From NCBI GenBank assembly GCA_951406725.2, contig OX597822.1:5084001-5148000 (forward strand): a stretch of DNA of 64,000 nt, given 5' to 3'. The position numbers and the translations under genes are program-made. The DNA is from Octopus vulgaris (Eukaryota). Of this stretch, positions 14,472 to 63,585 are shown piece by piece; within the stretch, counting starts at the first letter, position 1; each line of letters starts with the position of its first letter. Below the pieces are notes generated by a model. It was not told where the DNA came from. It was given only the letters and a program-made list of their open reading frames with translations, and made no database searches.

Positions 14472-15715
14472 TAGGTAGTTTTGAAAATAATGGCTGCTCT
14501 AAATGTTGTGTTTTGAAACACAATTTTATCATAGTATTTTAATTATATTTTAGGTGAATTTCAACATACTTCATAACTGTTGTATGCTCTTTAATAATTT
14601 TCTACTTATTTCAGACAGAAAACATTCTTGAAGCATAGGCGCCCTTAATTGCTTACTTTTCTTGCATGAGTTCAAGCTTGGGCACAATGCCTCCCAAACC
14701 ACTGCCAACATCAACAGAGCATGAGGAGAGGGATCCACAAGTGATCGCACAGTACAAAGGTGGTTTCAGAAATTCTGTTGTGGTGATGAGAGCCTTGAAG
14801 ATGAAGAAGGCAAAGGATGGTCATGTAGTCTTGACAATGAACAATTGAAAGTAATTGTTGAACAAAATTCACATCAAAGTATCAGAGAAATGTCTCAGGC
14901 ACTTGGTGTTGGTATTGCAATGTTCTCACACAATCTGCAGAAGATTGGTAAGGCGAAAAAGCTCGATAAATGGGTACCGCATGAACTCAATGAAAATCAT
15001 AATGTTCAGCATTTTGAAGTTTGCTCAATGCTCTTTCTGCAAAACACCAATGATCCTTTTCTTGACAGAATAGTCACTTGTGACAAAAAGTGGATCCTTT
15101 ATGATAACCATAAATGATCGGGTAATGGCTTGATTGTGATGGGTCCCCCAAACATTTCCCAAAGCCAAAGTTGCATCAGCAAAAGATTATGGTGACTGTC
15201 TAGTTGTCTGCAATTGGTGTTGTTTATTACAGCTTTCTAGAAGCCAATCAGAGCATTACAGCAGAGGTTTACTGCAAGCAACTTGCTGAAATGCATACTC
15301 ACTTGCAAAAATGAGACCTGCATTGGTGAATCAGCATGACCCAATTCAGCTCCACAATAATGCAAAGCTACATGCTGCAAGAATGACACTGCAAAAACTC
15401 ACAAACTTGGGATATGCGACTTTACCACATCTTCCATATTCTCCTGATCTTTCACCCACTGACTACCATTTTTTAAAGTGTTTAAACACATTTTTAAGTG
15501 ATAAAACTTTCAGGTCCAAACCAGGGGTGGAATCAGCTTTCAAACATTTCTTAGTATCAAAGCCAATACCTTTTTATCAACGAGGCATAAATAAACTCGT
15601 TGATTGATGGCAGAGATGCATAGATGTTCTTAACTCATCAAAACATTTCTGGTGTTGATTTTTCCAGAATAAAATTATATTTCTGAAATCAGCCATTATT
15701 TTCGGAACAACCTAA
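14471..15715 (+). mobile_element. Full-length inactive mariner transposon (Hsmar1/cecropia-like), ~1.25 kb
   Basis: Left TIR ttaggtagttttgaaaataatggctg after TA at 14469-70. Right TIR cagccattattttcggaacaacctaa ends at 15715. Transposase remnant lies inside. Confidence 0.93.
14630..15630 (+). pseudogene. Mariner D,D34D transposase pseudogene with stops and frameshifts
   Basis: HEFKLGHNA...RWFQKF..GDESLEDE, KWVPHEL, IVTCDKKWILYDN, LHNNAKLH (second D lost), PHLPYSPDLSPTDYH. Confidence 0.93.
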
Positions 15716-16020
15716 AATATATATATATATATATATAGTGCCAGTGTCATATAGAAAGCACCCAGCAATAGAAACCAAGCCAAATCAGACTGGAACCTGG
15801 TATAGCTTTCCAGCTTGCCAGCATGGAAAACAGATGTTAAAGGATGATGATGATATATAGTTAAAATTATGATTATATTTGGGTATAAACCTTGTAGGAT
15901 GCCATGTAAAGTATGTCCACAGATATTGGCAGCCTGATGTCAACATCAGTAGTGATGCAAATGCTACTGGTTTTATTTCAGGAATTTCTTGCAGTTCATG
16001 TAGTTTATATAAATAGACGA

Positions 16021-16377
16021 GAGACAGAAAAACAAATTCATGAGATTCTTTACTCAAATCCACTGCAGTTGTTTTGACTCATCCTGTATCTCTAGCTCAC
16101 AGGTGAGATGCTGTACAATCAATTGTCTTGCATCACAGGTACAGGTAGGTTGTGTCTCCTTAGATGACTTTTTAACTAAGTACCTGGCTTGGCTGAAATG
16201 GATAGAAGAAAGAGCAAGATGCTTGTTTCAAAAGTCACCGGAAGAGATACAATCTGCACCTGTGATGCAAAACAATTCATTTTACAGCATCTCACCTGTG
16301 AGGTACAGATGCACGATGAGTTGAAACAACTGTAGTGAGTTTGAATAAAGAATCTCGTGAATTCTATTTACTGTCCC
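16021..16377. mobile_element. Fold-back element: ~150-bp inverted arms with ~57-bp spacer
   Basis: 16021-16172 is the reverse complement of 16230-16377 (about 85% by eye). The right arm has gatgagttgaaacaactgtagtg followed by aataaa. Confidence 0.85.
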
Positions 16378-16427
16378 TGAACTATATATCTATATAAATA
16401 TCTATCTATCTATCAATATATATATAT

Positions 16428-16640
16428 AACGGGAAGCTTTATGAAAATAAACAAAAGATGAAGGCAGGTGGAAAACAAACGAACAATTGTATTAGTATGG
16501 TGCTCAGGAATATAAATAAAACAAGTCTTTTACGTTTCGAGCCTACACTCTTCAACAGAAAGATACACAGAAAAGAAACACGGAGAGAAACAAGGAGAGA
16601 AAAAAAATGCGTGCAGAAGCTAGCTATTCAACAGAGCGAT
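16428..16640 (-). mobile_element. Solo PLE-type 3' end/pLTR fragment (same family as 18826-18977)
   Basis: Reverse complement matches 18826-18977. Carries a hammerhead motif, and the 3' end abuts (TA)n. Confidence 0.85.
16526..16563 (-). ncRNA. Minimal hammerhead ribozyme motif (CUGUUGA variant)
   Basis: Minus strand TCTTT-CTGTTGA-A-GAGT gtag GCTC-GAAA-CG-TA-AAAGA. Confidence 0.6.
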
Positions 16641-17069
16641 TCTATGCACATACACACACACACACACAAATATATCAAATGAGAGAGAGATTGTATCATC
16701 AGACAGTATATGTATTAACTAGGTACAGAAAAGAACAACCCTTTATTATTTATATATAAATTATATTATCAAACAGTGTATGTACTAACTAATAACAGAC
16801 AGAACCAGCCTTCAATGGAACTCGTATCTATCATCTCTCAGATGTCTGTGTTATCAACTTCTCTCTGTAAAATTAGGTATAGGTGTTTTACTTATGATAT
16901 ATATTAATACTTCAATACTTTTGTTGTTTAATTTTACAGAGAGAAACAGAATAGTTGCTATATGATCTAATTATTAATACAACGGCCTAGAACGTTACAA
17001 GGTCTGAGTTCTGCTGGATTGTGAGTTCTCTTTTCTGACCCAAATTGGTTCTTATAATGTCTTTATCGT

Positions 17070-17330
17070 CATCATCATCATCATCATCATTTTAACATAC
17101 ACTTTTCCATGCTTGCATGGGTAGGAGGGAGTTTACTGAGATGAATTTTCTACAGCTGAATGCCTTTCCTATCACCAACCCTTACCTGTTTCCAAGCAAG
17201 TTTGTATCTCCCCATGACCAAACATGTTTTCAAAGAATACTTGAAATGAATGACACTTGTTTACAACTATCATATCATGACAAGACAAAGAGATGCTCAC
17301 ATATACAAACTTACACATTACATACACACA
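17070..17330 (-). mobile_element. SINE/LINE-tail repeat ending in (GAT)n (related pieces at 1-100, ~53865-54130, ~62650-62830)
   Basis: (cat)n then cttttccatgcttgcatgggt...tgcctttcctatcaccaacc, the reverse complement of the (GAT)n-tailed family, plus a shared cccatgRccaRa motif. Confidence 0.6.
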
Positions 17331-17397
17331 CAAACACATGCCAGTGTATCATATATCGCAAAAGAAGCACAATCTAAAGCATAGAGCAGTAATACAT

Positions 17398-17610
17398 TTA
17401 TATGCAGTTAAGTATATGTCCCATGGACGACTTGTCAGACTTTGAAGCCGAAAACATATAAGGGACTGTAACTCCCAGCTAGAGTTGAAGGACCGTAACA
17501 GATTCCTACCCACCAGATTTGAAGAATTATATGCCTTCGGCTGACGAGCCATCCATGGGACTAAACCCTTTATGGATCTGAAACCAGGATATATACTTAA
17601 CTGCATGTAA
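17398..17610. mobile_element. Small nested fold-back element with hammerhead-like core
   Basis: Outer IR ttatatgcagttaagtatatgtcc / ggatatatacttaactgcatgtaa. Inner IR gtcccatggacgacttgtcag / ctgacgagccatccatgggac. CTGACGA...GAAAC at 17541-17584. Confidence 0.65.
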
Positions 17611-17618
17611 TGGAGATA

Positions 17619-17827
17619 AGGCAGCAAGATGGAAGAATCGCTAGAACACTGGACAAAATGCTTAGCAGCATTCTGTCCATCTTTACATCCGCAGGTCAAA
17701 TTCAGCTGAGGTCAGCTTTGCTCTTCATCCTTGGGTGGGTGGATAAAATGAGTAGTGGAGCAGTGGGGTCGAAGTAATTGCCTTACCCCAACCCTGGAAT
17801 TGCAGGCCTTGTGCCAAAATTTGAAAC
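17619..17827 (+). mobile_element. MetaSINE-like SINE copy
   Basis: aggcagcaagatggaagaatcg...gaggtcagctttgctcttcatcctt...ggccttgtgccaaaatttgaaac matches 7011-7421 and 59246-59460. Confidence 0.75.
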
Positions 17828-17893
17828 ATCTATCTATATATATATATATATATATATCTATATATGCCAGTGGCATATATATATATATATATA

Positions 17894-18173
17894 TGCCAGT
17901 GGCATGTAAAAAGCACCATCCGAATGTGGCCGATGCCAGCGCCGCCTTGACTGGCGTCCATACTGGTGGCATATAAAGAGCACCAACTGATCGTGGCCGT
18001 TGCCAGCCTCCTCTGGCACTGGTGCTGGTGGCACGTAAAAAGCACCCACTACACTCACGGAGTGGTTGGCGTTAGGAAGGGCATCCACCAGTAGAAACAC
18101 TGCCAGATCAAACCCCAGTTGAACCATCCAACCCATGCTAGCATGGAAAACAGATGTTAAACAATGATGATGA
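17894..18173 (+). mobile_element. (GAT)n-tailed SINE 3' portion
   Basis: aaagcacccactacactcacggagtggttggcgttaggaagggcatcca...acccatgctagcatggaaa...(gat)n is near-identical to 29575-29750. Confidence 0.8.
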
Positions 18174-18186
18174 TATGTATATATAT

Positions 18187-18810
18187 AAATAGTGCAATAC
18201 AAGAATATTGTTTTCCAGTAAAATAAAGCACCATATGGTTAAAGTATAAACATAAATATAGAATGGTGGTACAAGAATGTACCAATATCTACTGGAAATA
18301 AAAGTTGATAATATACGACGCTATAAAAAAGCTTCACTGTATATACTGGCAAAGACGTATGCAGGTGGCAAACATAAGAAATTTCATTTTACCTGTATGA
18401 AGAACATTAGATAAATGTCCAACTCTTGCATTGCACTATTTAAAATTTTTCTTTGAACTTTTTTCCCTGTTCTTGCTTCTGTTAGCAGCTAGGTGTTCAA
18501 GCGAGTATACTGGCATTGATGTGGCAACAATTGAAATTTTGTTCTGGTAAATCTAGCTGAAGGGAACTAATCAAGTTTATGCTAGCAAACATATCTTGAA
18601 GAGTTTGAAACCTAGGTCCTAGATTATCCACATCTGGGTTGGACATTTATCTGATGTTTTTCATACAGGTAAGACGAAATTTCTTATGTATGCCGTCTGC
18701 ATATGTCTTTCCCAGTATATACAGTGAAGCTTTATTATAGTATCATATATTATTAACTGCTATTTCCAATAAATATTGGTGCATTGTTATACCACCATTC
18801 TAAATTTCCA
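18187..18810. mobile_element. Nested fold-back element with 165-bp inverted arms enclosing a hammerhead ribozyme
   Basis: 18259-18423 is the reverse complement of 18638-18802. A second IR pairs 18187-18204 with 18424-18441 (17/18). TA repeats flank both sides. Confidence 0.88.
18550..18625 (+). ncRNA. Type I hammerhead ribozyme with extended helix II and palindromic helix III
   Basis: AATCTAG-CTGAAGG-GAACT aa TCAAG...CTTGA ag AGTTT-GAAA-CCTAGG-TC-CTAGATT. Helix I is 7 bp, helix III is the palindrome ACCTAGGT, the triplet is GUC. Deviations are A9>G and C11.1>U. Confidence 0.75.
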
Positions 18811-18825
18811 TATATATATATATAT

Positions 18826-18973
18826 GTTTCTTTTCTGTGTATCTTTCTGTTGAAGAGCGTAGGCTCGAAACGTAAAAGACTTGTTTTATTTATATTCCTG
18901 AGCAGCATACTAATACAATTGTTTGTTTGTACTCCACCTGCCTTCGTCTTTTGTTTATTTTCATAAAGCTTCC

Positions 18974-18977
<4 letters not shown>
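18826..18977 (+). mobile_element. Solo PLE-type 3' end/pLTR fragment inserted in (TA)n
   Basis: Matches 16428-16580 (reverse complement) and is related to 37760-37905. (TA)n lies on both sides. Confidence 0.85.
18842..18879 (+). ncRNA. Minimal hammerhead ribozyme motif (CUGUUGA variant), best-preserved copy
   Basis: TCTTT-CTGTTGA-A-GAGC gtag GCTC-GAAA-CG-TA-AAAGA. Perfect 5-bp helix I, 4-bp helix II, ACGU palindromic helix III, GUA triplet. Confidence 0.65.
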
Positions 18978-19009
<32 letters not shown>

Positions 19010-19022
19010 TTATTTATATATG

Positions 19023-19075
<53 letters not shown>

Positions 19076-19169
19076 ATATACATATATATACATATATACA
19101 CACACACATGCACACATGTACACACACACACATATATATACACACACACACATACAGATAGACAGACAC

Positions 19170-19308
19170 AATGGGCTTCTTTCAGATTGTGTCAACCAGA
19201 TCTAAGGCTATAGTGGAAGACACTTAACCAAGGTAACAGAGGCAGTGGAACTGAACCTGAAAACACATTTTGGGAAGCAACTGTCTTAACCATAGGGCCA
19301 TATCTGTA
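19170..19308 (-). mobile_element. Decayed SINE head (family of 54851-55262)
   Basis: gggcttctttcag...aggctatagtggaagacactt...cagtggaactgaacctgaaa matches 55100-55215. Confidence 0.7.
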
Positions 19309-21984
19309 TCTCATATCAATTATATTATATTTAAATCTCAACCATGAATTTAGAATTATTCATATGCTCAGGCCTGATCATGGTCTGAGCACAATTCTAG
19401 ACAGTATGTTGGACCCTCTCATACTGATGCCAGATGAGGAGGAGAAGATGATGACTATGATGACAAGCAAAAGCTACAAAGATAACAATGAGACAGTATG
19501 AAAATAGAATGGCCTATCCACAGGGCATTAAGCAAGCAACAGATTTATATCGGAAATATGTGATATTTATGTTAGTTTTAGACAGAGAGAGAGAAATAAT
19601 GAGTACCTTGTTTAATCAGTGTGATGGTTAACCAGGACGTGGTATTTACAAGGTTTGATTCTTGTCAGAAGGTGTTTTTTTTTCTTTCTTTTGTTTCAAA
19701 ATTGTGTTTATAATGTCATCTTAGTAATTAAATAATAGTTGTGTATATAAATATACGCACATGCATAAAATGCAAATATTAGGGTAACTCCAGAAAAATG
19801 TCAATCTAAGATCTCTCTACTTCGGTTTCAGCCATCCCAGCTACTCAGTATATTGATGTTCAAAATGTAAGGAAAACAATCAAATGTAGTCCCCTGTAGA
19901 TATGTCACAAACTTGACAGTGCATGTAGCAGGTATACTGTGTTGACTGTTTGGCAACAGTGACTGAATAGAATATATAATACATACATACACACACATAC
20001 ATACATATATATATCTATACACACACACACACACATTGGCATATCAACAAATAGGATGCCATGAGTGGCTGGGTGCTTTGTATTGAGCTCTCAATAAGGT
20101 AAAACAACTTTTAGTTGTCAGTCAGTTGTATTGGCAGTAAACTGTGTGTGTGTGTGCGTGTGTATATACATTCATACATTCATATAAATGGAAAAATGTA
20201 TTAAAAAAATGAAGTAAAATGCACTGAATATGAAAACGAATTGGTGGTCACCTTTTCAGTGTTGATGATAAAGTATCCTTCCCATGTGGTGAACTGAAAG
20301 AATTGTGAGAACATCAGACCACATACTTTCCAGTGTTTGTGCACTGAGTTCAAATCTTGTCATGGACTACTTGGATGGTAAGCATAATCTGTTGTTCTGT
20401 ATATAGGCACCAACTGGCGTTTTAAGTGCTTTTAGCAAAGTCTATTATTCTATTGGAAGCACTCAGACAAGATCTTCTCCGTCAAACCCACTCATCTTAG
20501 AAATCCTCTAAGGGGTCATGGACACTGCCTTTGCTCCCAGACAAAAATATTTAAAAAAAACAAACAAACAAAAAGGCAAAAACAAAAGTGAAAGGAGTTT
20601 CTCATCAAATGCAGGCAACACTGCATAAAAGGATTTTGACTAACACTTTTATGTAAAATTAGCATCAGAAGGCAGACACTAAACAGAAGCCCATTTATAA
20701 AATGGCTTTAATAGGAGTAAATGCATATACCTCAAAGCAGACTATGAAAAATTGCAGCAGATAGCCAGCAACCATAGAAAAAGAAAATACACAACAAATG
20801 TTAAACACCACACTTGCAAAATAGTTGTAAGCATATAACCTTTGGGAAAATGGTTACTGTTCTAAATCTAATATCCAGTACATAACCTCATTCTTTACTT
20901 CTGCCAATAATTTCAATGATTTGAACAAACCATAATAGTGATCACCATACTGGAGTATGTCACTTCTATACATTTAATTGGACTTTGGGTGGATTACTAT
21001 TCTGGTTGCTTTTTCTTACATAAGCATTTTGGAAATTCTTCAAATTTTATTCTTTCCCCCCTTTTTCTATTGAATGCTTCACTAATTTATTTAAAAATGC
21101 ATTCATATTCCATCAGGAAACTAACAAAGATATGAACAGTTAATTTTCTATATGTCCAAATGCTTTTTCTACAGCATCATCATGATCATCACCATCACCA
21201 TCATCATCATCCGCATCCTCACTAACAATATCATTAACAACTTCATCATCATAACTAACAGCATCATCATCAACTTCAAGTTCATTGTACAGAAATAAAT
21301 AAATAATAAGTACAATCTTACTTAGTGTTGTATTGATTTTTTCCCCTTTCCTTTTTATTTTGCTTCTATTGGTCACTTTTGTTTCTTGATACAATAATCT
21401 CTTGAAGCGCCAAATCTTGTTAAAAATATCTTCTCCGTCTAGAAGAATGATCTACAGCACTTTTTTTTTCAGCTTGCAATGCAAAACTAATTTGGTTGAA
21501 AGCAAGTGATGATGATGGTAATGCTGGTGGTGGTGACGATGGTTCTGATGATATCAATAACCCATTTAATTTATTTCATTTTTTTTTTGTATTTTGTTTA
21601 ATAATATATTTTTTATAAATGGGACAACTTTCAGTTAAGTATATCAGTAATACTCAAAGCTAAAAAAAGAGTAATTGTAATTTAAACTGACCAAATGAAA
21701 GATTCCCTTTCATCAGGTCCATTTATGGAAGAATGAAAATTTCTTAAGAAAATCCTTTTATTTTTGTTATATTTCTTACATCATTTATTTTAAGTGATTG
21801 AAGAAAGAAGCATTGTATGACATGCATGTGTATTTGTGTGTGCACATGTAAACGCTAAGCTATTTACTCCCCATTTTTACTTTAGATAATGTTTTCAAAA
21901 ATAGCATGTTATTGCTGAGATGTTAAATAAAATGGAAGAACTTCTCATAAGGTAAGGGTATGCAAAGGCTCAATTGCACAAAGT

Positions 21985-22345: not shown

Positions 22346-25300
22346 CAATGAAGTGCATCTTGGTTGCAGCCACGTGAAGAAAATATATCTAACAGTTGAA
22401 GTGAGGCTTCATTTGATGAAAGAATATAGTAATTTGTTTGAAGTTTTGCAATATGTGTAAATGAAATAAATGCTTGAAGAAACCTTTGAGCTATGCAGGT
22501 GAGAAATTAACCAAAATATGTAAAGTGATGACAATGAATGCAACAAAGAAAAAAGACACCTTGCATAGGTTATTTATTGATCCAATAATATTTCAGGAAA
22601 AATTTCCTTTTTTCAACTAGAAGAAAGAAAATAATCAAAGAGTTCAGGGTTCAGAGAAATGTGCTGTTAGCAACAGGCCATTAATACAATATCTTTTCTC
22701 TTTGTTTTCATTCACTGACATCACTTTATATATTTTGTTTAACTCCAAAGGGATTTTTTTCAAGTATCTTATTTAAGCTTTATTTGGTGCAACACATAAC
22801 CTGCTTGGCTTATCCATTAACCTAAAATACTGATATACTGAATATTAAACTTAAAAGGGACAAACTAAGCCTGGTAGCCTCTTCATGAATGAATGAACAC
22901 AGAACCTTTATGATCTGTAGAGACTATCTATCAAAACAACAAACTCCTTGGATGAGGAACTCTTAAACTTATCCCAGGATATCTAAACACATGGTCAGAT
23001 ACATAATATTTCTGCTGTTGAAGCTATGCTTACTCGTGATACAGATTTATAGTTTGGTAGATTGCTTTATTGAAAATTAAATTATTTTTCCAGGAGCTTA
23101 GTGCAGAAATATAATGAAATCACTGTTCAAGATTATTAAAATGAACCATTAATATGATTAGTGATGGCATGAACGACCTTTTCAAACTATATTTCATGAA
23201 GATGTTGAACGTTTATTAATTTGCTTTAAGGTTCAACAAAAATTTATATTTTGCATTTAAAAAGATTGCACATCTGTGGCTGTGGGTTAAAAAGTTCACT
23301 TTTGCAAGTATTTCATGTTCTACTCTGACAGCATGGCATCTTGGGCAAGTTCCTTTTCAGAATGACCAAAACCTTGTGGCAGAAATCTTGTACCATGGAA
23401 ACGAGTGAAGACCACTAAGAGGATCATTCTTGCTGTTAGGGGGTGGACTTAATCTGCCAACCATGTAACACTGCCTTGTGGCCTAGGGTCTACTCTGCTG
23501 AAAGCATTCAGACCAAGTCTCTAGTCTGAAAGTAACATCTCCAATAGATTATGGAGGTCCTCAAAAGAGTTATGGGCACTGCTTTACTCTCTTTGAATAA
23601 ATCCATTGAAAACATCTACCACTGGTTACTCATTTAGATCATAAAAATATGGTGACGGGCTTGGCATGTTGCAGGGGTTATGCTTAAGACATACATTTCC
23701 CAAGTTAATGAGGATCTAGTTAAATTAAATGTTAGACTTAATGAAGCTGCTGATCTTTCCACATAAAAAAAAACTTTTGGTAAAATAGGCTGGTCAGTGT
23801 TGAATGCTTAATGTCTCTTAAATTATGAACTGCACCTTATGAAAAAGAGGAGGATGTTTAAAAGGGGAAGATAAAATTTGATTAGCAAGATTCTAAAACA
23901 GGACAACATCAATTTCAAATTTTTGTTACTTGAAATCAAAAGTGCCCCAACCCTTCCAAGAGTCCAATACTGTTCACATTATTCCAGCAATTCTTTTAGC
24001 AGCAAATCTGTATTGATACTTATATCATTCTTGAATTATGCATGCCAATGTTGTAGAGAAGGCAATATTTTTTGCATGGACAACAGTCAACGCTCAATAC
24101 TTACTATGACCTTTTTCAAGGCCTCCATGATAGGACAAGTGATAGTGTTAAATTGGATGATGGATTAAGTCTACAACAAAAATGCTTCTGACAGGCCTTC
24201 ACATACTTTCCAGTTACAAAATTTCAGTCACAAGGGTTTAGTTACCCTGAAAAGACACTTGACCAAGGAGCCACACATTGGGATAGAACCAAAATGATAT
24301 AGGCTGCAAAGCAAACTTCTTAACCTCACATCTATGGATGTACAATTTTTTTAATGCAAAATACTATCAGCTGAGAAAGTCTATGTTCTTGCAATTAAGC
24401 CTCAAGTGAAAGTCATAAATGTTCAAGAATGGTGAGTCAAATCTACTTGAAATATTACATATGCTTCATGACGTACTTTCAAAAGGTCATTTATTCCACC
24501 ATTGAACATTTTAATGGTTCATTTTTAATAACCTTGAGCAATAAACTCATGTTAGTTTTGCCATTGATTCAGATATAAAAAATTCCAAAGAAAAAACAAC
24601 TACTATTTAAAAACTTAAATTATCTTTCTGCAGACAGTATAAGGGTAAAATGGTAAACTATGTTAATGAGGTCTCCTTTATATTGCTGCAGTGAGTGGTG
24701 GGGTTATATACACATAGAAAGAGGAGTGAAAGGGAGCTACATGATGACACAAAGTACAAGGGAAATATGCCAGTAGTTGAGAAATATAGAGAGGCAGAGA
24801 GACACTTTTAGAGAAGGAAGTAGAGGAAATATGAATATTTAGTGAAAAATTTAATTTTAAAATTTTGACAGAGGATGACATAAAAAAAATTTATTATGAA
24901 AGACAGGCCATGTTATTTTGTTGCCATTTCTCTCAATTAGAAACATCATTATCATCAATTATAAACATCATTATCATCAATTACAAGCATTATCATCAAT
25001 TACAAGCATTATCATCATCTGTAATTTAATATCTACAGTTCTGTGCAGTTGGCATGAGTAAGATGAACGTGATTCCATTTGTTTACTTCAAAATATGCTT
25101 TTTAAAATCTTTATGATATAATGTATCATTTTCTACACAACTCTTCAATTACTTTAAAAGAATAAAATGTAATAATTCTCCTCCTCCTCCACTTCTTTCC
25201 CCCCTCTTCTCCTTCCTCCTCCTCCAGCACCTTTTTCATGTATGTATAAACATGCAAGTTTGTGTAAAACTTAAATTTTACCTTTTGTAACTGACATGAC

Positions 25301-29539: not shown

Positions 29540-29752
29540 AGCACCCACTACACTCATGGGTGCGGGTGGCATGTAAAAAGCACCCACTACACTCACGGAG
29601 TGGTTGGCGTTAGGAAGGGCATCCAGCCGTAGAAACACTACCAGATCAGACTGGGCCTGATGCAGCCTTCTGGCTTCACAGACCCCAGTTGAACCGTCCA
29701 ACCCATGCTAGCATGGAAAGCGGACACTAAACGATGATGATGTTGATGATGA
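29540..29752 (+). mobile_element. (GAT)n-tailed SINE 3' portion
   Basis: Same family as 17894-18173, 52705-53110 and 63330-63585. Confidence 0.8.
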
Positions 29753-32700
29753 TATATTGAACAATGTAATTCTACAGCATCCTCAGAATATGAGGTGTCA
29801 TGGTTGGAATGCCTTTGGACAAAAAACATACTTTAGAGTTGACCCAAAGCTAAAGAAAAACAACAGAGTATTATTGGTAAAGATAATTCTGAATGCGTGA
29901 AGTAGCAAGTCTTCCAGATGGGAAAACTGCTTTGAGTAAGTATATGACATACACATCATCTGTGAGTAACGTTTGAAATCATAAGAAATATGGAGTTAAA
30001 TAAATGTAGTTCCCATTAGGAAAGGAAAATAATTGACATTTCAGGCTCAGACTCTTTATCAAGAAAAGGAAGCAAGGAGTATTTTCCATCTGGGTGTAAC
30101 ATTAGTAATGGAGGGCAGAAGTAGAGAGACAGAATATGGCTTCTGAGGCAAGAAGAATGGGAGTAGATGATGAGCAAAAGGTCAGCCATGCAAAGGAATG
30201 ACAGTCAACGATTCAGCTAATGCCTGCATCTGTGTGTGTGTATGTGTATGTGTGTGTGTGTGTGTGTGTGAGTGAGTGTGTGTGTATGTCTGTGTGTGTG
30301 CATGCGAGTGTGCATGCATGTTGTGGTGGATATTCAGGTTAAATGTGTAACCCCAAAATTCAATTTAAATACAACACTAGTTTTACCATTACACCAGAAG
30401 AAAATCACATCATATCATTTCTAACACTGAACTTATAATTGTCCCCACCGCTCTTCTTCTAACCATCTTATTGTCCCTACATGTTGCATAACGTACTTTA
30501 TAAATTCCTTCATTTTGACTTCTGCTACTCAGAGTAACTTTTTCCTAGTGATGAAAATGCTAACTTACAGTGCTTACAAGATTTATTATACCAATCTCAC
30601 ATAATTTTCCAGTCTTAGAATTCTTTTTTCTATCGACACTGACTCACTTTGAATATGAACTATGTATTTATGTGCCAACAAGAATGATTCTATGCTATTG
30701 CTTCAGCCTACTAGATATAGTGGTCAAATCTTCCTTAAATCACACTCCACTATTAAAAATTGGGACGGTCACTGAAGTAGCGTTTTTAATCATAAGTTTA
30801 TTTAATAAGAGCTGAGGTGGGGCTAAACAACAACAGCAACTCATTAATTAACATTCTTCATGTTTAAATAGGTGGGATGTCTTTTGGCTGCAGAAACTGC
30901 TTTTTACAGTTGGATGATCTTTCTATTGCTAACCCACTGAATCATGAAGAAGTTGTTGTCTCAGGCTTGAACTTACAGACACTGTACTGCAAGTATGAAG
31001 CATATTTTACAGCCCCTTAAAACTATGCTACTACAGAAGACAAATGAGAACTGTAGATGGTTGAATAAATTGGTTTTTGGTAAATGGCTAGTTCAGTACT
31101 AAGTCTATATCCAAGAAATTTCCACCAGGATACTTGTAGCTAAAATGCCAAAGTCATGGGATATGGCTTAGCAGTGACTATGCTTATTTATTTATGTTAA
31201 AACCATGTTTTACTATTTCTTTTCCTGGTGGTAAGAGAATTAGTTAAAACAAAACTACAATGATTTCTTCTATTAAGGCTCAAAAAAAAAAATCATTTCA
31301 GCTGTGTTTAAAACTAACAAAGTATCTGTCAGCTTCTCAGTCTGAACTGCATGCATCAATGAACTGCATCTCTCCATGGAGTTCCACAAATATGGCAGTA
31401 AAACAACGAAACAAATGAATGTTTTCAATGCCTTGAAGTGAACAAAATGGATCAATGCTTAACTTAGGTTTCATTGCATTAAGCAGCCGAAGAATAAATC
31501 TTATTTGGAATAAGACGTCCATCACTACAAAGTGACATTCCTATGAGGTTTGGGACCAAATATTGATATATGTGGAATTAATAGCTCCATAGTTTCTCAG
31601 ATATACATACCACAGCGCTTGCAGTTGATTATGAACCCAAGACCTATGAGTTGGTAATATAATACCTTATCTATTTGGACAGTTTTGCATTTATAGAGAA
31701 AAAAGTAAGAAAATAAGGAAGAAAGTAAATGTTAGTAAAGCATCACACTAACTGTAAACCGTTCCATGGTTTGAAGATTTACAGTAAAGAGATTTAATCT
31801 TCATGAACAAGAATAAATAAATCAAATTTTTCCCCAACCATCTTCTGGCCCACCACCCATATTTTCAATCATACTGATAGATCCAAAAAGGAATACATAC
31901 ATATACATATATATATATGTATATATATATATGAAATGTGCTCACATATCCCTCTCCTGCCTCTCACCAAAAACAACCAAACACGACAGTGTTCTGTGTT
32001 GAAATAGTATTATACGAGACATAATATTCATTGTCTTCTTATTTCAGCTGTGAGGTCAACATAGACAAACTAGAATATTACAGGAGTTAAGTGCATGTTC
32101 ACTTCTAATACAGCTTCCATAATCATTCTTCTGATATCAGAGATTAACTTTAAATCAAAAGCAACGTTAATGCTATCAGCTTGTTTTCCATTTCTTGTCC
32201 ATCTGGGGGATTCTTCCTGCATTGCAATGCATACTTCTTCTAAGAGATTGCCAATACATTATTTCCTATCTCCTTACTTTTTGGTTTGAGGAAATACACG
32301 TACTCATACATACACAAGTTTGGCTTCATTCTTTATTTTAAAATTATGCAATTCTTTTTTTATTTAATCCTTCTTTTATTCATATTATTGTTTTATTCAG
32401 TTTCTTTCCATCAAAATAATTGGAATTGTGCAGAACTAGAGTCTTAGAGCTTTCTTGCTTTTTTTTTTCCCACTTCTGATTATAAATTTTTAAACAGTAT
32501 TAAGAACCATTGTTCACCAATGTCTCTTATGTCTTTCTCTATCAAGCAAGCAAGCAAGCAAGCCAGGAAGCTTTGGAAAAGATAATGCAAACTAAATACA
32601 TGTTTGCTAATACTCTTCTATCACTTTCATTTCTCTTATCTTTCTGACTTATCAATCAATACTTTACCAAGTGAGAGTTTTGGTAGGCTTCAATATACCT

Positions 32701-35700: not shown

Positions 35701-36769
35701 GATGGTTATTGACATAAGATTCTATAATGATGAAAATCAAAGAGTACCAGACTTGATAGTAAGGGATATGATGTCTCCTGTTAGAAAACATTTCATATAG
35801 TGATGAAGGTCACTTAGAAATCTGTGATCCATGATACCGTAATCAGTTGTGTATGTCAGTCATTAGACATTGATTACATATGTGGAAATAATACTAATTT
35901 TGTCCTTGGGCAGCAACTGTTATTTCCTATTAGCTAACCCCTAGAAAGTATGAAAAACAGCTAATATTTCCTTCAAACTTTGGTTTTTATCACATTTATT
36001 CAAACTCCAAAGAATCCTTCTCAACACACAGCTATGATGCTTCCCCACTACTCCTGCTCATGATCAGAGATGCACATATCATCAGCCACTAACAGACAAG
36101 CAAATCTGTGGTATTGAGCAGAATATTTGATATAACAATATTTCTGCTTCAGTAGCTCAGTAAATCTGTCTGAAAAGTAATGGAAAATAGGTCAGTTTCA
36201 AAACAAGTCCAGGTCACAAAAGCAATGTTTGAAGGGAATAGTAGTAATTTCTTTTGATTTCTAGATAGAAGCAAATAGAAAATAACACTTACTAACCAAA
36301 GACAAAAAAAAAAATAAATAAATGTTACGCAGTGTAATTATAGACTTTATATTTATCATGATACTTTCCATCTTGCATTCTTAGCATAATATCAAAAGTT
36401 ATCCTCCTTAAATCACAAGGATCTCTATGACCAATTTGTTGTTTAGGTAATATTTTACATGGATTAAGGATGAATTTTTCACGGCGTACTACCCTAGACC
36501 ACTGCTTTATTACTGATGGAAAACTGAACTTATTATTGAAAGCCAATGGATTAGTTTACATAGATTTATTACTAATTCACTGGCTTCCAGTGTTTCATCC
36601 TTCATTATCAAACTTAGTATTCCTGGATTTTCTAGGGTACAGATCTTATGTCAATTATCGTAACTTCATCCCTTGCTTGTCCATTCATATGAAAAATGAC
36701 CATAACATCAACATGTCCATCCAACCCCTCCACTTCACACATCTTCCCCAACATACTCCTCCCTCCTTC

Positions 36770-37239
36770 AACCTATGTGGCCTCTTGGTCCACAGTTTCT
36801 TCCCTAACCCCTCCTTCCAACCTGGATTATTCACCTGCTCCCACCCGTGCAGCCTACTTGCCCCTACCTCTCCAACACCACCATCCTCACAGGCACCCAT
36901 CATTGTCCCTATCATATCACTGACTCCTTTACCTGCATTTCTAGCAACATTATTTACTGCATCACCTGTTCTTTCTGTCCTTCTCTGTACATTGGTCAAA
37001 TGGGACACCACTTGACTGACCAGTTCACGGAGTACCTCCAAGACATTAGACTCAGCAATGACACCCCGATCTCACACCATTTCTGCTCTACCAGTCATTC
37101 ATTACAACACCTGTCTGTATTTGGATTATCTTTGCATAGGAGCCATCCGGACACTCGTCTTCACCATGAACAGGAATTAATTTTCTTTCTTCACTCCTTT
37201 GCACTACATGGGCTCAACTCCCCTCCCCTCTTCATCTGA
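36770..37239 (+). pseudogene. PLE linker zinc-finger plus GIY-YIG endonuclease remnant
   Basis: NLCGLLVHS...PGLFTC, frameshift, then TCPYL...FTCISSNIIYCITCSFCPSLYIGQMGHHLTDQFTEY...PISHHF...EQELIF...HGLN. The catalytic Arg region is mutated. Confidence 0.9.
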
Positions 37240-47294: not shown

Positions 47295-48791
47295 TGATGA
47301 GAAAATTAGAATTGACAATCAATTCTCACAGTTTTATCTTAATAATAAAAACAAATCTCAAAAATTAGACGATAATTTGCAAACTGAACAATTTCTAAGA
47401 CTAAATTAACCTTATATGTCTGTATTTCTAAGACAAGTTATTAATAGCCATACTAAGCATTGATTGGACTATTAACCTCCTCTTTTTCTTTTTCTTGTGC
47501 TTTTTTTTTTTTTGCTTTCAATTTATACTACATTTTAATCAATATCTTCTCCAAGCATCTTTAGGAGCCATACTATTACTCATATTCATCCATACATTTA
47601 CACACACATACATGTGTGTTTATTGCATCTAAAGATTGTGAGAGGATATAGTGATTGGGAAAATGTGTGAATAGAAACACCGAATATGAGCTGAATAACT
47701 TGGCCAAAGTGACAAAAGTCAATTGATTCTTTAGTTCCTTTAAACCAACCAACTCGGTTAAGGTAGCAGAATGCTGTTGATGGATTGTATAACATAAAAG
47801 ACATTACAGTCTGTAAGATTTTTGTTGAGAATATTTATTTCAAACATGGATGGAAGCACTCCGTCGGTTACGACGATGAGGGTTCCGGTTGATCCGACCA
47901 ACAGAACAGCCTGCTCGTGAAATTAATGTGTAAGTGGCTGAGCACTCCACAGACACGTGTACCCTTAACGTAGTTCTCAGGGATATTCAGCGTGACACAG
48001 AGAGTGACAAAGGCCGGCCCTTTGAAATACAGGTACAACAGAAACAGGAAGTAAGAGTGAGAGAAAGTTGTGGTGAAAGAGTACAGCAGGGATCACCACC
48101 ATCCCCTGCCAGAGCCTCATGGAGCTTTAGGTGTTTTTGCTCAATAAACACTTATAACGCCCGGTCTGGGAATCGAAACCACAATCCTATGACTGCGAGT
48201 CCGCTGCCCTAACCGCTGGGCCATTGTGCCTCCACTATTTCAAACATAGAGACCAGATAATATGCTTGTAATGGTTCAACTCACTAATGATACAATATGT
48301 AAAATTCCATGAAAATGAAATCATTGAAACAAAAAAAGAACAAAAAGAAAATTATATTATGTATCTCACACACAAAAATACACACAGCATATGTATTCTG
48401 GTTTTTCAAATAGATACATGCATCCCTTCACATTGTCACAGGTGACTAAAAGAATTAGCACCAGAAAGGGCATTCGATCGTAAAACATTGCCTCAAAAGA
48501 ATGTTATCTAATCTTTGTCAGCATAGAAAAGCAGGCATAAAAATAAGGATGATTTGGTTAGATAAACACACACACACACACAGATGTGTGTGTGATGTAA
48601 TGGCAGTCTCTTGTAGTCTGAGAAAGACAGTTCTGCAATTTCTTGCTGAACAACCTAAACCAATGATGAGAAAATTAGAATTGACAATCAATTCTCACAG
48701 TTTTATCTTAATAATAAACAAATTTCAAAAATTAGACGATAATTTGCAAACTAAACAATTTCTAAGACTAAATTAACATAATATGTCTGTA
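47295..48791 (+). repeat. ~130-bp direct repeat pair (47295-47424 and 48664-48791)
   Basis: tgatgagaaaattagaattgacaatcaattctcacagttttatcttaataataaa...atttctaagactaaattaac...atatgtctgta occurs twice with few differences. Confidence 0.9.
47848..48235 (-). mobile_element. Young full-length tRNA(Arg)-like SINE with 12-bp TSD
   Basis: TSD tatttcaaacat at 47836-47847 and 48236-48247. Near-identical to 28891-29277. Confidence 0.93.
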
Positions 48792-52603: not shown

Positions 52604-52704
52604 AGGAGATATATTTAAGAATTTACAAAAAATTGTAGAGGAATAACTGACCTGTCTTTCTGGCATTTTGTTTTGTGTGTAGCTAATATATATATGCACC
52701 AATT

Positions 52705-53110
52705 ACACTATTGGAGTGGTTGGTGTTCGGAAGGGCATTCAGCCATAGAAACCATACCAAATCAGACTGGAGTCTGACGCAGCCTCAGCTTGTAAGCACT
52801 AGTCAGACATTTCAACCCAATTCAGTATGGATAATGGTCATGAAATGACGATGATGCTGATATATATATACACAAATATAAGACTTAGCGGTGTAGCTAG
52901 TGCCATATAATAAGCACCCATGCTGGTGCCATATAAAATGCACCCAGTACACTTTGGAAAGTGATTGGTGTTAGGAACGACATGAAGTCATAGGCACCAT
53001 GTCAAAACAGGCAATTGGAGCCTGGTGTAGCTCTCTGGCTTGCCATCTCCTAGCCAACTAGCCAACCCATGGAAGAAGGACACTAAATGGTGGTGATGAT
53101 GATGATGATG
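52705..53110 (+). mobile_element. Two decayed (GAT)n-tailed SINE 3' portions
   Basis: gagtggttggtgttcggaagggcattcagccatagaaac and gtgattggtgttaggaacgacatg, each ending in (gat)n. Confidence 0.7.
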
Positions 53111-55575: not shown

Positions 55576-56008
55576 CATATAATACACACACGTGTGCATA
55601 TATATATAATACATACACACGCATGCATATAAGATATATATATATACATATATATATAGATAGATAGATATACATATATATATATATAGATAGATAGATA
55701 TACATATATATATAGATAGATATACATATATATATAGATAGATAGATATACATATATATATAGATAGATAGATATACATATATATATATAGATAGATATA
55801 CATATATATATATATAGATAGATATACATATATATATATAGATAGATATACATATATATAGATAGATATACATACATAGATAGATATACATATATATATA
55901 TAGATAGATATACATATATATATATATAGATAGATATACATATATATATATATAGATATATATATATATATATATACATATATATACACATTACATGCAT
56001 ACACACAG

Positions 56009-56060
<52 letters not shown>
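55545..56060. repeat. Compound (TA)/(TAGA)/(CA) higher-order microsatellite
   Basis: Unit tagatagatataca(ta)n repeated more than ten times. It explains ORFs 55363-56208. Confidence 0.9.
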
Positions 56061-56817
56061 GTATGAAGGCAATACTGTAGCATGCCTTAGCCATTATTAC
56101 AAAAACCACACTAAAGAATATATTGACCTGAAAGAAGAAAAAAAAAAACTGAAATACAGAATTCTGAAAGCAAAGCGATACAAAAGTACGACGACCAACC
56201 ATTTGCAATTGAAATCATTAACAGCATACATGAAGCAGTTTGAAATGGCTTTGGAAACTGGTTTACATCAGAAATTCATAAAAGCATGCACATGCAAGCT
56301 CAAGCATGTACACATGCAATGTCATATAAATGAACATTGTGCAAATAATCCTGTTTCTGCACACCCCTCTCTCTCTCCCTCTCCTACCTTACCCTACCCT
56401 ACTCTGGCTACACGTCAGTTCCATCCACCATCACTTCGTACATACTTGGATGCCTAACAGCCAGCATGGGTGTTCACTGCAACACACGCACACACACACA
56501 CACATTCGTATATATACACAGTATATGTATGTATATATATGCACGTATACGTATGTATAAGTATGTATGTATACATGTATATATGTGTGTATATATATAT
56601 ATATATGTGTATGTGCATGCATATATATATATATGTGTGTGTGTGTGTGTATATGTATATATATGTGTGTGTGTATATATATACATATGTATGTGTATGA
56701 GTGTGTATATATATATATGTATGTATGTGTATATGATGATGATGATAATGATGTTTATATATGTGTGTGCGTATATATATATATGTATGTGTATGTATAT
56801 ATATATAACTTTCTCAC

Positions 56818-56871
<54 letters not shown>

Positions 56872-57298
56872 ACATATGTGTTTAAATATGTGTGTGTATG
56901 TGTGTGTGTGTGTGTTTATATATATTCATATATTTGTTGCTTGCTGTATACTTGCATTATAAGTTAGTTCTGACTGGCCTTCATTATGCTCTGGAAAGTG
57001 CTTTCAACGTTTACAAGAATATTGTGAATATCATTGCCGCAGTATAACGTTTTCTTGACAAATCAGTTTTCAGGTCGGTGACTCAGTTTTAATTTTCTAC
57101 CTGGTCAGCTTTTTGCTTGTGCTAAAAATCCATGAGTGTGAATACTCCTCATTTTCTCTCCCTTACAAATCTAAGATGTCATGTTTGACATGCACTAAAG
57201 ATGGTTCAATTAACTATAGCTCTAATCTTATGGGATTTGTACAAAAATGACAAATTATTATTATTATTATTATTATTATTATTGTTGTTATTTATTAT

Positions 57299-63329: not shown

Positions 63330-63585
63330 ACTCCCACCAGTTAAAATGTCTTGTCCTGCAAGTTACTTGGTGACCTCAATGCTACTGGTGTCATATAAAA
63401 GCACTCAGTATACTGTGTAAAGTGGTTGGCATTAGGAAGGACATCTAACCTTAGAAACCATGCCAAACAGAGAGTAGAACTTGGTGCAGTCTTTTGACTT
63501 GCCAGTTCCTGTCAAACCATCCAATCCATGCGAGCATGGCAAATGGACATTAAACAATGATGACAATGATGATGATAATGATGAC
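63330..63585 (+). mobile_element. (GAT)n-tailed SINE 3' portion
   Basis: agtggttggcattaggaaggacatc...ccatccaatccatgcgagcatgg...(gat)n. Confidence 0.75.

Follow-up and report, generated by a model that had tools for sequence, protein, structure and literature searches.

What kind of element carries a hammerhead ribozyme in the loop of a long fold-back? This question is raised by positions 18187-18807 of the window that we analyzed, a stretch of 64,000 nt (1-64,000) of AT-rich, microsatellite-rich animal DNA. The original prediction was that the locus represents a non-coding mobile RNA that folds into a rod whose loop holds the ribozyme, an architecture outside the standard SINE and MITE classes. 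Our findings lead to a different reading, in which the locus is likely a decayed copy of a ~432-nt unit with a single hammerhead, a non-LTR retrozyme moved in trans by Penelope-like elements (PLEs), and in which the fold-back likely arose from this particular insertion. The features of the locus are listed in Table 1.

Table 1. Features of the fold-back locus, with positions in the 64,000-nt window
Feature	Position	Strand	Basis or remark
Left TA tract, tail of the neighboring dispersed repeat; putative insertion target	18178-18187	.	
Inverted, 5'-shortened unit copy, 237 nt	18187-18423	-	Self-comparison; 5' end abuts the sense copy at 18423/18424
Tail-like 3' extension of the inverted copy past the end of the sense copy, 67 nt	18187-18253	-	Self-comparison, family contigs
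Nested 18-bp repeat, outer half; same unit sequence as 18424-18441 (17/18)	18187-18204	-	
Left arm	18254-18423	-	170 bp, 87% alike; 16 transitions and 6 transversions relative to the right arm
Sense copy, 384 nt, bearing the hammerhead and the right arm	18424-18807	+	
5' half of a putative 11-bp stem, paired with 18673-18683, that would close the hammerhead domain of the unit	18533-18543	+	
Type I hammerhead	18545-18630	+	Helix I has a 2x2 internal loop and 3 more pairs
Right arm	18638-18807	+	Self-comparison; contains the chance "second vestige" 18651-18679
Right TA tract, putative insertion target	18810-18825	.	

The ribozyme itself was described accurately. Helix I is perfect (18550-18556 with 18619-18625, 7/7 Watson-Crick pairs), the GAAA box occupies 18607-18610, helix III (18610-18617) is self-complementary, and a GUC site is present, with cleavage predicted after C18618. 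Helix II (18564-18606) is, as had been claimed, unusually long and interrupted, with 5+5+4 pairs and a length of ~43 nt. The two substitutions said to separate the motif from the canonical one were both found: in the core (18557-18563), G at 18563 stands in place of A9, and U at 18606 leaves a G18564-U18606 pair closing helix II where C is expected. The second change is indeed of the CpG type, since the expected C would sit in a CpG. The copy at 18187-18807, which carries these two core-breaking changes, is predicted to be catalytically dead. With its native letters, the hammerhead fold is predicted at -17.0 kcal/mol, 4.9 kcal/mol less stable than the best fold (-21.9). A strict descriptor that was chosen after the match was known (helix I of at least 7, helix II of at least 4, and at most one change in the core) gave one match in the window and one in a set of 150 shuffled windows of 64 kb; no match in the shuffles had a palindromic helix III. 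A looser match is found at 47443 on the minus strand (helix I of 5, helix II of 4, palindrome), and 5 such matches occur in 150 shuffles. The motif was not called by Rfam at the gathering score in the whole window, nor at E ≤ 10 for 18550-18625 within 15500-19600, where the 43 matches were microsatellite noise only. Within the element 18187-18807, there is no minus-strand hammerhead. Scanning metagenomes with a 19-base stretch of the motif gave 0 matches, as did a search of viral contigs with a two-core-box pattern. The same pattern matched 17 loci in metagenomes, which we rejected as relatives because helix I is 0-3 bp in 17/17 and none resembles the element; these are chance matches. A bacterial promoter scan was at chance level and is irrelevant for animal DNA.

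The inverted arms are also real and flank a 214-nt loop, a second estimate giving arms of 179 nt at 85%. The locus amounts to 1.4 units, in the form of an antisense and a sense piece whose 5' ends meet at 18423/18424 and whose 3' ends face the TA tracts. The 5' end of the inverted piece corresponds to 18638, which is 19 nt downstream of the hammerhead cut site, and its 67-nt extension consists of 48 nt exclusive to the inverted piece and an 18-nt overlap. This layout accounts for the nested 18-bp inverted repeat to which attention had been drawn: the repeat exists (18187-18204 with 18424-18441, 17/18), but it is the overlap of two unit pieces, since the antisense piece ends with the same 18 nt with which the sense piece begins, and we rejected it as a separate terminal repeat. 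No direct repeat longer than 17 nt was seen inside the element among the 20 of 22 repeat families listed, and motif search and self-comparison revealed no second copy of the element within the 64-kb window. Self-priming at a junction palindrome was rejected since there is no palindrome at 18423/18424. The element sits in the tail of a dispersed SINE-like repeat that ends in (ATG)n followed by TA (17860-18186, plus strand); other copies of this repeat lie at 29559-29757, 52696-53109, and 63387-63577. Further upstream, 14725-15607 (plus strand) holds a broken mariner-type transposase, with a weak match to the Mos1 HTH (E 0.0002).

Other copies were studied through assembled contigs from 4 of 24 listed sequencing runs, of which three were DNA runs of three organism labels. 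The results below are from the 40 of 134 letter rows, 15 of 60 joints, and 24 of 498 loose ends that were listed, and summed depth was not taken as copy number. Contigs matching the element numbered 497, 580, and 435 in the three DNA runs, about half of them less than 90% alike to this copy, which indicates an old multi-copy family; most are less than 95% alike and decayed. The fourth run, guessed to be RNA, gave 15 contigs with one across the cut site, and is uninformative for expression or cleavage. Both core positions are mostly canonical in other copies, and the check suggested with the original prediction was thereby passed. A is found at 18563 in 86-93% of summed depth (955/1109, 5958/6593, and 843/902, from 17, 18, and 27 contigs), and C closes helix II at 18606 in 59-72% (1677/2863, 11510/18773, and 1109/1545, from 32, 37, and 28 contigs). 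The long helix II is kept in the loose-end majorities, where it is longer than the 5+5+4 pairs of this copy: 18575/18595 is a compensatory pair, A-U there and G-C here, and 18576/18594 is Watson-Crick there and a mismatch here. The diverged contigs among the loose ends have A at 18564, and the base of helix II may take another register in them; this A may be the unpaired base that occurs in PLE hammerheads, as described in PMC4209133. When 21 family letters were placed on the fold of the sense piece, 4 strengthened a pair, 6 weakened or broke one, and 11 were unpaired. Outside the ribozyme, the family has C at 18543, so that the 11-bp stem gains a G-C pair in place of a G-U. One copy, seen in two runs through a joint between 18537 and 18644, has lost the whole hammerhead (18538-18643) and has six other letters instead.

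The same contigs argue against the second hammerhead vestige that had been proposed in the right arm. At 18651 most of the family has T (53-64%), and at 18653 most has A (76-89%), away from CUGAUGA. The left arm also has A at the position equivalent to 18653, which makes the G in "CTGATG" a change that the right arm alone carries. The GACGAAA of the supposed vestige lies in 18673-18683, which pairs 11/11 with 18533-18543 flanking the ribozyme. A second hammerhead in the arms was thus rejected: the motif is not restored in the family, and its GACGAAA is part of a flanking stem.

How does the family sequence continue beyond the ends of this copy? Beyond 18186 on the left, 12, 10, and 8 contigs carry letters in which the reverse complement of 18440-18471 is recognizable by eye, and at least 3 of the 15 listed joints link 18186 to 18461, 18495, or 18538 on the opposite strand. 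Family contigs cover 18187-18253 and then continue into the T-rich stretch that follows 18441, and further contigs connect the loop with the arm and the arm with 18186. Together, these pieces show the family sequence closing into a unit of ~432 nt, made of 18424-18807 plus 18253-18206 (minus strand). The unit has 432 nt, 32.6% GC, and one hammerhead; its longest ATG frame is 51 aa, no tRNA was found in it or in the element, and the element has no reverse transcriptase or GIY-YIG frame. Since the closure rests on overlapping pieces of different copies, we can only infer head-to-tail arrays from it, and none of the contig pieces listed holds two head-to-tail hammerheads.

The existence of a unit bears directly on the rod, that is, on the idea that the whole 620-nt fold-back RNA is the mobile species, with the ribozyme in its loop, and is copied as such. 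Its predicted fold is very stable, with z = -25 for the whole fold-back RNA as opposed to z = -1.29 for the sense piece alone, which folds no better than shuffles. In the loop, helix II persists with a pair probability of 0.98-0.99 and helix I in part, at 0.49, and the letters common to both arms could be read as co-variation. Among the 23 listed letters at which the arms diverge from the family (one duplicate row dropped and one minority row left out), 10 are common to both arms and 13 are private to one, from which we conclude that a single template or subfamily gave rise to both arms, which drifted afterwards. The 22 mismatches between the arms are not skewed on either strand toward G-U pairs (9 vs. 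7), and contigs continue past 18186 in unit order. The junction tells the same story. The bin at 18423/18424 has a summed depth of 285, 927, and 117 in the three DNA runs, against 1579, 7399, and 1048 for the hammerhead core, and only pieces near-identical to this locus cross the junction among those listed, with 0 differences, or 2 in another organism label. Head-to-head junctions as such are frequent, at 4 of the 15 joints listed out of 60, and yet they lie elsewhere: at 18337/18517, ~18299/18576, 18235/18751, and 18479/18519, the first and the last each present in two runs. One of them begins inside helix II, and the 18479/18519 locus has the hammerhead region in both arms, its halves differing unequally from this copy (33/206 vs. 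10/211 letters). These varied junctions indicate that the fold-back is a frequent outcome of insertion with no fixed shape, and the rod, largely refuted, is left as highly improbable. What endures of the original prediction is a multi-copy, non-coding element with a conserved hammerhead; the rod with a loop ribozyme as the architecture of the element does not.

Two other explanations of a fold-back with these properties were rejected. MITEs and fold-back DNA transposons are short, non-coding, and AT-rich, with long inverted arms and TA flanks, and the locus resembles them in all these respects. It differs in that its ends and junction vary among copies, its left arm is not terminal, and the family continues past its left end; the fixed terminal inverted repeats of such an element are absent, since contigs run past 18186 and junctions vary. 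A viroid-like rod with hammerheads in both polarities was set aside because there is no minus-strand hammerhead, the second motif is not restored, and the junction is not conserved.

The unit corresponds most closely to the non-LTR retrozymes of animals, which are described in PMC7229834 as low-GC tandem units of 150-450 bp with type I hammerheads and with linear and circular RNA. Units of 51-972 have also been reported, and the origin proposed in bioRxiv 10.64898/2026.07.22.740005 is PLE ends. Like the published retrozymes, our 432-nt unit is non-coding, has a GC content below 50%, and bears one type I hammerhead, and its copies are dispersed and decayed in a genome that also has PLEs. Its short palindromic helix III resembles that of the axolotl HHR_Amex1, which cuts as a dimer; weak hammerheads with a palindromic helix III cut in this way, and mussel retrozymes also do without most of the tertiary-contact bases (PMC7229834). 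There are two differences from the published descriptions: a helix II of ~43 nt instead of 4 bp, and an arrangement of 1.4 units split head to head, a layout absent from the text consulted. Helix II is 4 bp in canonical hammerheads and 6-8 bp in those of PLEs, according to PMC4209133. Because helix II (18564-18606) far exceeds the canonical ~4 bp, we filed the element as a variant; most likely it is a non-LTR retrozyme that is set apart by the unusual length of its helix II. The claim that the element is neither a standard SINE nor a MITE was correct. A class outside known kinds is not supported, the unit being a ~432-nt repeat with a single hammerhead. No cephalopod retrozyme was found in the literature searched, although some published supplementary lists may contain cephalopod or long-helix cases. 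The term "ribozyme" occurs 0 times in the text searched of the Octopus vulgaris repeat annotation (PMC13282606), and the match for long helices II in the literature, in PMC4209133, concerned helix III in the part consulted.

Could the family have spread at the DNA level, with the hammerhead as an inherited relic? Satellite-like spread by unequal exchange, replication template switching, or MITE-like capture would suit the decay of most contigs and the copy that has lost its whole hammerhead. Published work points in the same direction, in that one PLE inserted in vitro without needing a hammerhead (PMC11167929) and 8/9 predicted frog retrozyme dimers were uncut (bioRxiv 10.64898/2026.07.22.740005). 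Against this, dispersed single insertion into TA tracts, variable 5' junctions, and one-sided extension fit reverse transcription, and the core and the long helix II are kept, with a compensatory pair, across three organism labels. We consider such spread very unlikely.

If the unit is a retrozyme, which machinery would have inserted it? The locus shares with endonuclease-bearing PLEs an inverted, 5'-truncated copy placed head to head, an extension at a single end, and a TA/AT-rich target. Insertions of PLEs often carry an inverted 5'-truncated copy and a tail at one end and use TA targets (PMC8557442), head-to-head being the commonest arrangement of PLE copies (PMC3846280); in its purified form, one PLE protein cleaved AT-rich DNA on both strands, extended both, and started reverse transcription within the RNA (PMC11167929), and octopus Naiad PLEs with a TA preference are listed in a published supplement. 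The palindromic 15.2-16.2/loop 3 feature is likewise shared with the hammerheads of PLE pseudo-LTRs. Compared with the PLEs described, there is no reverse transcriptase or GIY-YIG frame, the hammerhead is not of the minimal type, the extension is 67 nt instead of the usual 30-40, and the junction lacks the palindrome of rotifer PLEs. These features bring up the alternative that the locus is itself the pseudo-LTR end of an autonomous PLE, formed by two 5'-truncated head-to-head cDNAs, the 18-nt match being the start of a downstream partial-tandem copy. Such an end would explain the layout, the tail, and the TA target. Truncated PLEs show hammerhead pairs on opposite strands 100-700 bp apart in the data of PMC4209133, and the diverged contigs may have the unpaired base after A9 that is typical of PLE hammerheads. 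The family closes after ~432 nt, however, which leaves no space for an ORF, and the hammerhead, with its full helix I, internal loop, and helix III, differs from the minimal motif that the window's PLE remnant carries. We regard an autonomous PLE end as quite unlikely.

The window does contain PLE remnants. A GIY-YIG-like frame is found at 36808-37239 (plus strand; feature score 0.96-0.97), with no Pfam match in that frame, and the region 3' of it, up to 37900 (plus strand), has a minimal hammerhead core and is a Penelope-like remnant. Ends related to this remnant lie at 443-808, 16383-16580 (minus strand), and 18825-18972 (plus strand). No resemblance in sequence was seen between the ~432-nt unit and this remnant, and a PLE partner did not come to light. 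The PLE 3' ends 16383-16580 (minus strand) and 18825-19020 (plus strand) are 92% alike, face outward 2.2 kb apart, and enclose 18187-18807, each with a minimal hammerhead core bearing one change (at 16555 and 18850); they represent a single inverted insertion, filled by others afterwards, or else two insertions. An unrelated fold-back at 16006-16392 has 139-nt arms (82%) between TA tracts, with homologous inner ends and a weak hammerhead-like core, and is probably another Penelope-type inverted insertion. Further close inverted pairs, identified by self-comparison, lie at 22507-22742, 23103-24561, 35898-36307, and 55808-56933.

We propose the following course of events for a retrozyme moved by PLEs. 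Source copies would lie head to tail and be read into a multimeric RNA, in which two hammerheads would pair their palindromic helices III and, in a dimer-dependent manner, cut after GUC, releasing a unit-length RNA that may circularize. A PLE reverse transcriptase/GIY-YIG endonuclease would then nick both strands of a TA tract, and both nicks would prime cDNA on an RNA exceeding one unit in length, at the position of 18807 in one case and, further upstream, at that of 18441 in the other. Once joined, the two cDNAs would amount to 1.4 units in which the upstream part is inverted and 18 nt overlap, in the manner of twin priming, and the inserted copy would then have decayed by about 6.5% per arm. 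Several observations weigh against this scheme: the listed contig pieces hold no head-to-tail pair of hammerheads, the PLE remnant of the window is dissimilar, helix II is far longer than those described, the sense piece folds no better than shuffles and family letters weaken more pairs of its fold than they strengthen, the tail is long, the junction has no palindrome, and a single template does not account for the unequal halves of the 18479/18519 locus. The twin-primed 5' inversions of L1 elements, as reviewed in PMC9148063, are alike in that an upstream part of the RNA is inverted and meets the rest near an internal priming site. They differ from this locus in having a poly(A) tail and L1 hallmarks, neither of which is found here, and in their template, which here would be multimeric and built of a short unit, so that pairing between the inverted and the sense parts is possible. 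A retrozyme fold-back with the inverted, tailed, TA-targeted layout of PLEs supports the proposed dependence of retrozymes on PLEs.

A more specific version of this scheme is a rather unlikely but possible one, namely that in a lineage with a long helix II cleavage created the template's 5' end and both nicks primed one partly cut multimer. The inverted piece would then stop 19 nt short of the cut because ribozyme cleavage set the template 5' end. The rough chance of an inverted end 19 nt from the cut site is 0.04, and that of a piece starting 18 nt from the sense start is 0.09; the 18337/18517 locus seems to share this start-overlap geometry, in record coordinates that leave the true start of the contig uncertain. 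A general piling up of inverted ends at the cut site was rejected, since it is seen at 1/5 junctions and the four other inverted pieces end elsewhere.

Short hammerhead repeats are known as a class and are common in animals, including mussels. The novelty of the present family is modest and lies in its conserved helix II, which has roughly three times the usual length; the host is probably an octopus, to judge from the style of the dispersed repeats in the window. Such fold-backs may be taken for MITEs or viroid-like rods. If the more specific scheme of a partly cut multimer is true, the many junctions of the family would offer a direct genomic test of the part that the hammerhead plays in Penelope-type mobilization and of the way in which head-to-head copies form.
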